NCBI GenBank assembly: GCA_013166775.1
Contig: JABLTJ010000008.1
Location: forward strand, 52,564-116,563
Reading direction: 5' to 3'
Source: Promethearchaeati archaeon
GTDB lineage: Archaea; Asgardarchaeota; Heimdallarchaeia; Heimdallarchaeales; Heimdallarchaeaceae
Length of the DNA stretch: 64,000 nucleotides
Both the position numbers and the translations under genes were made by a program. Every line of letters starts with the position of its first letter. The first letter of the stretch is position 1. Below, piece after piece: positions 29,340-30,524 of this stretch. The notes under the pieces were generated by a model. That model saw nothing but the letters and a program-made list of their open reading frames with translations, ran no database searches and had not been told where the DNA came from.

Positions 29340-30524
29340 ATGTCTTCATCTTTGTCTAAATTTCTGAAGAAAATTGATATCAAAGAAACTGCAATTATGA
29401 TTGTTATTGCAATCGCTTTATTCTTTCTTGTTAAGATGATGTTTGGTGGTGTTTTAGGAGTATCATTGGTAGTCATAGAAAATGGACCATGTCCAAATTC
29501 TTCAATGTGTCCTACATATGATCAAGGAGATATGTTTCTCATATTCAAAAATAAACCAGAAAACATTCAACTTGGAGATGTAATTGTTTATGAATCTGCA
29601 ACAGTATATAGCAGAGGAACTTTAATCATTCACAGAGTTGTTAATATTACAGTTATAACTGATACTGAGGGTGATCACTATTATTTTCTAGTAAGTGGAG
29701 ATAATCCATCTTCAAATAACTATATAGATTATTATGACTCAACAACTCACTTTATACCCTATGAAGCTGTTTTAGGGAAAACAAAACTTATCATTCCCAA
29801 ACTTGGGTACGTAAAACTCTGGTTATCCATTCCAGATTTTATCTGGCTACGTTATGTTTTAATTGCAGTACTTCTAGGCCTAGCAGTATATTTGATATTC
29901 GCACCTGATGATAAAGATAAGAAGAAGAAAGATGAAGAACAAGAGAAAACAGATGCTGAAGTAACAAAAGAAGAATCCAAAGAAGAAGATTCAAAATTTA
30001 GTTTTAAAGACATACTTAATACTTTCTGGATTAAAACAAAGAAATTTTTTGTCGAACTTGTTACTGTTCGCAAGAAAAGAATTAAGTTAATTATTACTGC
30101 TTCAGTAATCATCTTCCTAATAATTTTCATACCGGTGCTTGACACTTTGATTAAATCACCTGGTGTCGAAACAGGAATCGATAATGTTGTTCTCTTATCA
30201 GCTACAAGCTTTATTGGAGAAGATATTGTATTTCTCCCATTCAACATCTATTTCAAACACGATGGTTCATGGAACACAGTTCTAAAGAGTTTTGAAGTGA
30301 TTGGAATACAAAATGGTTCTATTTTGGCAACAATGAAATGGGGATCGTACACTCAAATTGAAGGTGATAATATCATAGGAGGCTCTTTAATTTTCGATTC
30401 AAATCAGTTTAATGCCAATGAATCACTTACAATTAGCATTTCTTATATTATACATTACAGATTTGGTTCAGATGTACCTCAAGTATTTGAGGATATTTTT
30501 GACCCGCCCTATTTGCAAATTTAA
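29340..30524 (+). CDS. sec11: Signal peptidase I (Sec11/S26B type) with C-terminal TM plus beta-sandwich extension
   Basis: SSMCPTYDQGD (catalytic Ser), GDVIVY, IIHRVV (His), GDN, IPKLGY. Confidence 0.9.
   Translation: MSSSLSKFLKKIDIKETAIMIVIAIALFFLVKMMFGGVLGVSLVVIENGPCPNSSMCPTYDQGDMFLIFKNKPENIQLGDVIVYESATVYSRGTLIIHRVVNITVITDTEGDHYYFLVSGDNPSSNNYIDYYDSTTHFIPYEAVLGKTKLIIPKLGYVKLWLSIPDFIWLRYVLIAVLLGLAVYLIFAPDDKDKKKKDEEQEKTDAEVTKEESKEEDSKFSFKDILNTFWIKTKKFFVELVTVRKKRIKLIITASVIIFLIIFIPVLDTLIKSPGVETGIDNVVLLSATSFIGEDIVFLPFNIYFKHDGSWNTVLKSFEVIGIQNGSILATMKWGSYTQIEGDNIIGGSLIFDSNQFNANESLTISISYIIHYRFGSDVPQVFEDIFDPPYLQI

Follow-up and report, generated by a model that had tools for sequence, protein, structure and literature searches.

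Background

The eukaryotic signal peptidase complex (SPC), with its core of SEC11A/C and SPCS3/Spc3 (7P2P, 7P2Q and 9RJB), is the described system with which the protein reported here is best compared. SPCS3 is a glycosylated subunit made up of a type II transmembrane (TM) segment and a lumenal sandwich, the latter described for SPC22/23 as an extended ASF1-like sandwich, and it is thought to position the catalytic domain at the membrane in trans (10.1101/2020.11.11.378711). According to Liaci et al., the accessory subunits of the complex arose with the eukaryotes (10.1101/2020.11.11.378711). The 2026 SPC structure describes a C-terminal helix of ~20 residues (CTS) in human Sec11A that traverses the membrane (PMC13385932), from which it follows that eukaryotic Sec11 ends in the cytosol.

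Two other arrangements are relevant. Ordinary archaeal Sec11 proteins (TIGR02228; the short Asgard forms) end soon after their second TM segment. In bacterial LepB, which uses a Ser-Lys dyad, a non-catalytic beta-sheet domain II that lacks a membrane helix of its own is inserted inside the catalytic domain.

Here we describe an archaeal Sec11 in which a TM segment and a beta-sandwich follow the peptidase on the same chain. A full-text literature search yielded no description of an Asgard counterpart of the SPC accessory subunits or of a fused Sec11 architecture, and within the scope of that search the protein is a real, conserved and previously undescribed Sec11 variant with an accessory module in cis.

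Results and discussion

One chain with three membrane segments

The window, by which we mean the whole stretch of 64,000 nucleotides that was analysed, has a G+C content of ~33% throughout. According to the ORF listing and the translation, positions 29340..30524 of the + strand form one uninterrupted ORF of 394 aa. The original prediction placed a Sec11 protease, a charged linker, a third TM segment and a beta-rich domain on this single chain, and all of these parts were recovered from the ORF, the hydropathy and the structural models. The features are as follows.

29340..30524, + strand: whole gene (P0001), three-TM Sec11-type signal peptidase I with a fused TM/beta-sandwich module (ORF and homologues)
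29340..29390, + strand: cytoplasmic N-terminal tail, residues 1-17, net charge +2 (charge count; helix 2-10 in the model)
29391..29459, + strand: TM1, residues ~18-40, signal anchor, N-in (hydropathy; model helix 14-35)
29460..29828, + strand: extracytoplasmic S26B/Sec11 catalytic domain, residues 41-163 (TIGR02228, profile, Foldseek)
29502-29504, + strand: catalytic Ser55 (SSM motif)
29631-29633, + strand: catalytic His98 (HRV motif)
29700-29702, + strand: catalytic Asp121 (GDN motif)
29832..29900, + strand: TM2, residues 165-187, counterpart of the eukaryotic Sec11 CTS helix (hydropathy; model helix; profile alignment)
29901..30080, + strand: cytoplasmic linker, residues 188-247 (disorder, charges, RING insertions in orthologues)
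30081..30149, + strand: TM3, residues 248-270, N-in/C-out (hydropathy, positive-inside charge, both models, conservation)
30150..30521, + strand: extracytoplasmic beta-sandwich, residues 271-394 (C-domain model)

The N-terminal tail may be equivalent to the short helix with which human Sec11A begins (PMC13385932). The linker carries 17 K/R and 16 D/E residues by charge count; its part from residue 189 to 222 is rich in K, E and D and disordered (pLDDT <50 in the full-length AF2 model), and residues 222-242 form a conserved helix. The third TM segment begins exactly at the predicted nucleotide, 30081, which corresponds to residue 248 (IKLIITAS...), and within it P265 and D268 are near-invariant in an alignment of 37 full-length homologues. 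Altogether ~55 full-length homologues with identities of 45-88% were found in the Heimdallarchaeaceae, and by the source names of homologues the window belongs to this family.

The N-terminal half is a Sec11-type signal peptidase

The N-terminal half is a genuine Sec11, i.e. an ER-type S26B enzyme of the Ser-His-Asp type. Residues 19-163 match the NCBIfam model for archaeal signal peptidase I (TIGR02228) with 56.9 bits against a cut-off of 51.85. The SSM, HRV and GDN motifs that had been read as catalytic are present and supply Ser55, His98 and Asp121, which are invariant, as is Asp130, in the 37 full-length homologues. With a profile of these homologues the best solved relatives are human SEC11C and SEC11A (E 6e-15 and 7e-15, respectively); the catalytic residues fall on the SM.P, HRV and GDN motifs of the human enzymes, and the alignment continues through TM2 onto SEC11C residues ~170-190. 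A Foldseek search with the whole model gave 7p2p_A as the top match (E 1.1e-4, TM-score by target 0.63, 24% identity), and 7p2q_A, which shares the SPase I fold of the outer domain, reached a TM-score by target of 0.65. No bacterial SPase was found among the top 50 matches of this search, nor did it return a chain spanning both domains.

In a six-frame scan of its own genome with TIGR02228 the Sec11 locus scored 59.8 bits and was the sole Sec11 match; that genome is 88.7% complete, so that a second peptidase is possible. Since no other Sec11 match was found at this completeness, the sequence evidence makes the protein very probably the housekeeping type I signal peptidase of this Heimdallarchaeaceae archaeon.

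Topology of the chain

In close orthologues, which are 488-489 aa long, each half of the query has its counterpart, and a RING finger lies between the two; in orthologue P0016 the zf-RING_2 model matches residues 233-276 with 35.5 bits against a cut-off of 27.3. RING-type zinc-binding domains are taken to be cytoplasmic, and these insertions therefore place the linker in the cytoplasm. With the linker in the cytoplasm the C-terminal sandwich comes to lie outside, on the same side as the protease. The N-terminal tail is basic and K-rich, and an RKKR motif directly precedes TM3. Like SPC22/23, the C-terminal module is thus a single N-in TM segment followed by an extracytoplasmic all-beta domain, as judged from the position of TM3 after RKKR and from the side of the linker that the RING insertions indicate.

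The extracytoplasmic placement of both outer domains also fits with conserved N-x-S/T sequons in each of them. The sequon N102-I-T of the catalytic domain is present in 35 of the 37 sequences. The C-domain has sequons at N325 and near N358-360, and about half of the Heimdallarchaeaceae set carries sequons at two C-domain positions; in the Hodarchaeales the C-domains have two sequon positions as well, occupied in 13/14 and 12/14 sequences. We consider a three-TM topology with protease and sandwich outside to be well supported.

The original prediction was that the fusion would reproduce the topology of the SEC11-SPCS3 core, with a TM segment and a beta-sandwich on the extracytoplasmic side; the RING insertions, the C-domain model and the CTS helix all agree with it. 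Because the C-terminal helix of Sec11A spans the membrane, the archaeal chain corresponds to the SEC11 and SPCS3 topologies joined at their cytosolic ends.

The C-terminal beta-sandwich

The model of the C-terminal domain shows a long TM helix and then a seven- to eight-strand sandwich of ~124 residues (domain pLDDT 87.6). Across all subfamilies W334 is invariant and G309 near-invariant, W334 being the sole invariant residue in the merged alignment. Foldseek ranked the lumenal domain of TMEM106B first (8b7d, E 4.9e-6), followed by AF_0446, ApaG and GH2 Ig-like domains, and the similarity of the LEA_2/TMEM106 type spans the whole domain. A shape search of the ESM Atlas returned TMEM106, LEA_2 and GH2 clusters together with archaeal and viral hypothetical proteins; SPC22 was absent from its results. 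In the feature search of the same Atlas the closest clusters consisted of archaeal hypothetical proteins of ~155-170 aa that stand alone, and among the clusters with a name an archaeal LEA_2 one came nearest; all of these scored 0.76-0.84 and are to be taken as leads only. On the strength of these models the module is predicted to be an Ig-like sandwich of a common kind, the LEA_2/TMEM106 type.

At the level of sequence the module is an orphan. No Pfam or NCBIfam model matched the C-domain at E<=10, and the Pfam models LEA_2 (PF03168) and TMEM106 (PF07092) gave no match at E<=10 for the C-domain or for members of its family. In this it differs from the TMEM106B lumenal domain (8B7D) and from LEA_2 domains (1XO8; AF_0446, 3BUT), which, moreover, are not part of a peptidase. 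A phmmer search with the C-domain against 1.8 billion representatives yielded 10 matches in total. Six of these, five of them strong (E<=1e-34) and the sixth of 425 aa, lie in chains with lengths of 398-524 aa; of the other four, one is a fragment of 83 aa and three are weak matches, in several stretches, to long proteins. A length-restricted profile search added three short entries only, which lie on small contigs or are marked partial, so that neither search produced a credible stand-alone form of the C-domain. The sequence family has been seen only in fused frames of ~370-450 aa.

Within the family the C-domains diverge very fast, to the point that subfamilies barely recognise one another. 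An hhalign comparison of subfamilies A2 and A3 gave a probability of 70% (E 4e-5), and comparison of A2 with the Njordarchaeales form and with the form of family f3 gave 24-29%.

Distribution of the fused and the short forms

An A2-type C-domain was found in 51 of 399 Asgard genomes (by family: f1 26/30, f2 1/1, f4 11/12, f7 11/12), always in frames of ~370-450 aa or in contig-end fragments, and single-contig genomes are included in this set. The family f5, which the source names of the homologues identify as Hodarchaeales, has its own divergent subfamily in 22/22 genomes, with frames of 369-423 aa. The forms from f3 (395-aa frame) and f24 (332 aa) show the same three-TM/sandwich layout; the f24 protein belongs to Candidatus Njordarchaeum / Njordarchaeales by an exact-sequence match. 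The fused form is thus present in nearly all of the 83 sampled Heimdallarchaeia genomes, and it has been kept in the Heimdallarchaeaceae, the Kariarchaeaceae, family f7, the Hodarchaeales and the Njordarchaeales despite the very fast divergence of its sequence.

This distribution bears on the trivial explanation that an assembly or frameshift error merged two genes. The same unbroken frame occurs in dozens of independent genomes, single-contig ones included, and on many metagenome contigs; the occurrence in 51/399 Asgard genomes and in the further 22/22 Hodarchaeales genomes refutes a chance or assembly fusion, and we regard the probability of such an artefact as negligible.

Elsewhere in the Asgard archaea most of the Sec11 frames listed measure ~190-270 aa. 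At the five Sec11 loci inspected (f9, f14, f20, f27 and f31) the order TM1-protease-TM2 is followed by a short acidic tail, and no gene for a TM-sandwich protein was found within 1.5 kb of the short Sec11 at any of them. The expectation that other Sec11 proteins would be short has thus been confirmed for these loci, and the lengths of the other frames agree with it. In these five other Asgard families the inspected Sec11 is short, and the module is absent both from its chain and from its flanks of 1.5 kb, which suggests that catalysis in general probably does not depend on the module. The fused form marks the Heimdallarchaeia and the Njordarchaeales. Published phylogenies point to this clade as the likely source of the eukaryotic branch.

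Comparison with described signal peptidases

Relative to ordinary archaeal Sec11, the protein has the same catalytic domain, catalytic residues, TM1 and TM2, but where the former end it continues with a cytoplasmic linker of ~60 aa, TM3 and an outer domain of ~124 aa. With LepB it shares the combination of a non-catalytic all-beta domain and an S26 catalytic core in one chain; here, however, the module follows the catalytic domain and has its own TM segment, and the active site is of the Ser-His-Asp rather than the Ser-Lys type.

The likeness to the eukaryotic core extends further. It comprises the ER-type Ser-His-Asp domain (E 6e-15, TM-score by target 0.63-0.65), an N-terminal TM segment together with a membrane-spanning C-terminal helix, and a second N-in/C-out TM segment with an all-beta sandwich on the active-site side. 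In addition, both outer domains here have conserved N-glycosylation sequons, and SPCS3 is glycosylated (10.1101/2020.11.11.378711). On the other hand, the archaeal protein is one chain instead of two, its sandwich has no detectable relation to PF04573 and is nearer to TMEM106B, LEA_2 and GH2 than to the ASF1-like SPCS3, and counterparts of SPC12 and SPC25 were not found in its genome.

Is the module related to SPCS3?

The original prediction went beyond layout, in that it took the C-terminal domain to be an SPC22/23-like subunit fused to Sec11. The identity of the enzyme, the layout, the side of the membrane and the shortness of Sec11 elsewhere agree with that proposal; likeness to SPC22/23 in sequence or in specific fold found no support: SPC22 was silent and TMEM106B, LEA_2, ApaG and GH2 domains all rank above SPCS3. 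The Pfam model SPC22 (PF04573) gave no match to the protein at E<=10, and it was equally silent at that threshold for 37 members from Heimdallarchaeaceae/Kariarchaeaceae, 14 from Hodarchaeales and the f3 and Njordarchaeales forms (>55 members tested). A six-frame scan of the protein's own genome with SPC22 gave no match, and the same scan of 83 genomes of the class gave sub-threshold matches only, all on contigs other than that of Sec11. Profiles of A2, of A3 and of both merged (A4) did not reach an SPCS3 chain among PDB sequences at E<=10. The tryptophan of the 'SWN' segment, one of those that had been lined up with SPCS3, is not conserved in the family, the Hodarchaeales having 'IFNN' at this place. 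The Pfam models for SPC12 and SPC25 produced only sub-threshold matches in the protein's own genome, similar to those in control genomes. In the Foldseek search with the C-domain, SPCS3 (7p2p_B) appeared at rank 33 with E 5.5e-3, TM-scores of 0.47/0.42 and an rmsd of 7.9, values that refer to a docked model at 4.9 Å; the alignment covers nearly the full length of SPCS3 in 174 columns at 14% identity. A better score for a generic LEA_2/Ig fold without an SPC22 signal had been named in advance as an outcome that would refute the prediction; the generic fold does outscore SPCS3, with no SPC22 signal, which speaks against that part of the prediction.

True homology may nevertheless be considered, in which the C-terminal TM segment and sandwich represent the archaeal ancestor of SPCS3, and SEC11 and SPCS3 result from a gene split in the cytoplasmic linker. 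A cut at this position would give exactly both eukaryotic topologies (PMC13385932; 10.1101/2020.11.11.378711). The fused form, moreover, is found in the sampled Heimdallarchaeia families, in 22/22 Hodarchaeales and in the Njordarchaeales, with five other Asgard families having a short Sec11 and no such neighbour. The case for a fission is built chiefly on this bracketing of the clade and on how exactly the topologies fit, and it is circumstantial. The archaeal subfamilies can barely be aligned to one another (hhalign 24-70%), so that one would expect any sequence similarity to SPCS3 to have faded as well. Likewise, SPCS3 does occur among the structural matches over nearly its full length, and scores against it could be blunted because 7P2P is a map of ~4.9 Å fitted with predicted models (10.1101/2020.11.11.378711). 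Against descent stand the silence of SPC22 for more than 55 members at E<=10, the location of its weak six-frame matches in the 83 genomes away from Sec11, the failure of all three family profiles to reach SPCS3 at E<=10, and the lack of an SPC12 or SPC25 signal above noise in the genome. The fold points in the same direction: TMEM106B, AF_0446, ApaG and GH2 Ig-like domains fit clearly better, the Atlas shape search did not return SPC22, and SPC22/23 has been described as an extended ASF1-like sandwich (10.1101/2020.11.11.378711). We therefore consider true homology unlikely. It is just as doubtful that the fused Sec11-linker-TM-sandwich protein was the ancestral core of the eukaryotic signal peptidase, from which SPCS3 would have been born by a split in the linker and then have drifted in sequence and fold. 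The module may be called SPCS3-like in layout and plausibly in function; its homology to SPCS3 is unproven, and the balance tips against it.

Possible role of the C-terminal module

The reading that we prefer, at a probability of roughly 0.55, is that the module serves as a built-in accessory: the sandwich would pack beside the catalytic domain and, in concert with TM3, would hold the active site and orient it at the surface of the membrane. Despite a disordered linker of ~35 residues, the full-length AF2 model reaches a pTM of 0.67, which suggests a defined mutual arrangement of the domains. When residues 1-190 and 241-394 were docked, each with its own alignment, the predicted complex scored 0.40 against 0.00 for the best of 3 controls, a result graded as weak support that may reflect likeness to the solved SPC. 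For calibration, 58 of 80 solved complexes reach the mark, as do 2 of 110 mismatched pairs; with scores <=0.60 it is only 7 of the 80 solved complexes that reach it, together with both of the passing mismatches. The docking runs agree in >=87% of the contacts with a partner pLDDT >=73, at a score in the weak-support range.

A competing reading is that the module is an unrelated add-on, a generic membrane-anchored sandwich of the LEA_2/TMEM106 kind that does a non-catalytic job and is not seated on the protease. Such jobs might be contact with the cell envelope or S-layer, recruitment of substrates or partners, or coupling to cytoplasmic factors via the linker. The top structural matches, TMEM106B and LEA_2-type domains, are what this explanation would lead one to expect, and the nearest Atlas feature clusters, stand-alone archaeal proteins and a named LEA_2 cluster, lend it some support, although scores of 0.76-0.84 make them leads only. 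The low docking score (0.40) is also in its favour, and so is the linker, which is long and variable and accepts a RING domain, features that suggest a cytoplasmic function of its own. However, neither the phmmer search of 1.8 billion representatives nor the length-restricted search found the domain family away from Sec11, and the Pfam models for LEA_2 and TMEM106 are without a match too. Furthermore, the fusion has been kept across deep lineages while the sequence has changed almost completely, which fits better with a structural partner that co-evolves with the enzyme than with a module that binds an independent ligand. For these reasons an unrelated add-on seems to us rather unlikely.

The following mechanism is proposed. 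By homology to Sec11A, TM1 and TM2, the latter as the counterpart of the CTS helix, would bind the h-region of the signal peptide, and the Ser-His-Asp site would cut signal peptides on the outer face of the membrane (PMC13385932). The flexible linker leads to TM3, which re-crosses the membrane and displays the ~124-residue sandwich on the side of the active site. There, TM3 and the sandwich could act as a brace in cis that positions the catalytic domain at the membrane, a proposal to which we give about even odds. The linker itself might serve as a cytoplasmic platform, which in some lineages has gained a RING domain; such RING-bearing variants are a hint that the processing of signal peptides and ubiquitin-like signalling may be connected in Asgard archaea.

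In the closest archaeal kin of the eukaryotes Sec11 thus already comes with a membrane-anchored beta-sandwich, which takes the place that SPCS3 has in the topology of the eukaryotic core. Irrespective of whether common descent or convergence has brought this about, the fused protein is a single chain and genetically simple, and therefore well suited to studying the contribution of such a module to a Sec11 peptidase; with it, the question of where SPCS3 came from becomes open to test. Should a gene split have taken place, an SPC accessory subunit would for the first time be traced to a prokaryotic source.

Genomic context and sequencing records

The gene neighbourhood, which indicates no functional link, consists of a pilin-like gene, genes for a zinc-ribbon protein and a small Mrr-like protein, sucCD and the gene for ribosomal protein L44e. 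The stretch, for which no RNA run is listed, was found in three DNA runs, all from a single metagenome study of marine sediment, and two of these runs are possible sources.

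Variation in the linker and the termini of Sec11 proteins

A RING finger was found between TM2 and TM3, in the cytoplasmic linker, in some of the Heimdallarchaeaceae orthologues of the peptidase encoded at window:29340-30524 (P0016, P0018, P0020, P0021 and P0028; 488-489 aa). The zf-RING_2 match in this linker exceeds the cut-off (35.5 bits), and the insertion site corresponds to approximately window:29950-30000 in the window gene. The combination of a signal peptidase and an E3-ligase-like domain in one chain recalls the ER quality-control ligases. Open frames of 494-567 aa in the Asgard genomes G019, G020 and G013 may represent the same RING-bearing type. 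The charged linker of the homologue P0063 (524 aa), which carries about 110 extra residues at its N-terminus, yielded a Pfam Sec62 match below the threshold (18 bits vs 27.8) that is probably compositional.

Two other loci encode extended Sec11 proteins:

L014:1474-2469, + strand, Njordarchaeales Sec11, 332 aa (Candidatus Njordarchaeum, genome G284)
L018:1453-2955, + strand, Sec11, 500 aa (genome G078, family f6)

The Njordarchaeales protein has the order TM1-protease-TM2-TM3-sandwich, as in the window protein. Only some 10-25 residues separate its TM2 from TM3, so the architecture does not require the long acidic linker. The C-terminal extension of the f6 protein (about 300 aa) is different from the window-type module and much longer, and was matched by neither the Heimdallarchaeaceae/Kariarchaeaceae-type (A2) nor the Hodarchaeales (A3) C-domain queries. 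It contains numerous N-x-S/T sequons and a further hydrophobic helix, followed by a charged tail at the end.

Conserved sequons

Of the 37 full-length homologues, 35 share the sequon N102-I-T (window:29643-29651), which immediately follows the motif of the catalytic His. The C-domain of the window peptidase carries sequons at N325 and N360, and two sequons are conserved in the C-domains of the Hodarchaeales (13/14 and 12/14 sequences). The retention of N102 and of the Hodarchaeales sequons suggests that the peptidase is itself N-glycosylated.

Genomic context

The peptidase gene has the following neighbours:

window:27182-27589, - strand, archaeal type IV pilin-like protein, 135 aa
window:27732-28454, + strand, protein with a zinc ribbon at its end, 240 aa
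window:28472-28807, - strand, small Mrr_cat restriction-endonuclease-like protein, 111 aa
window:30562-32572, - strand, sucD and sucC, for the alpha and beta subunits of succinyl-CoA synthetase
window:32692-33003, - strand, ribosomal protein L44e

The zinc-ribbon and Mrr_cat-like proteins, encoded just upstream, have no evident link to the peptidase. The sucD and sucC genes are convergent with the peptidase gene and are followed by that for L44e. The pilin-like protein, whose Pilin_N N-terminal signal scores at the cut-off (25.2 bits), would be a substrate of a class III, not a class I, signal peptidase.
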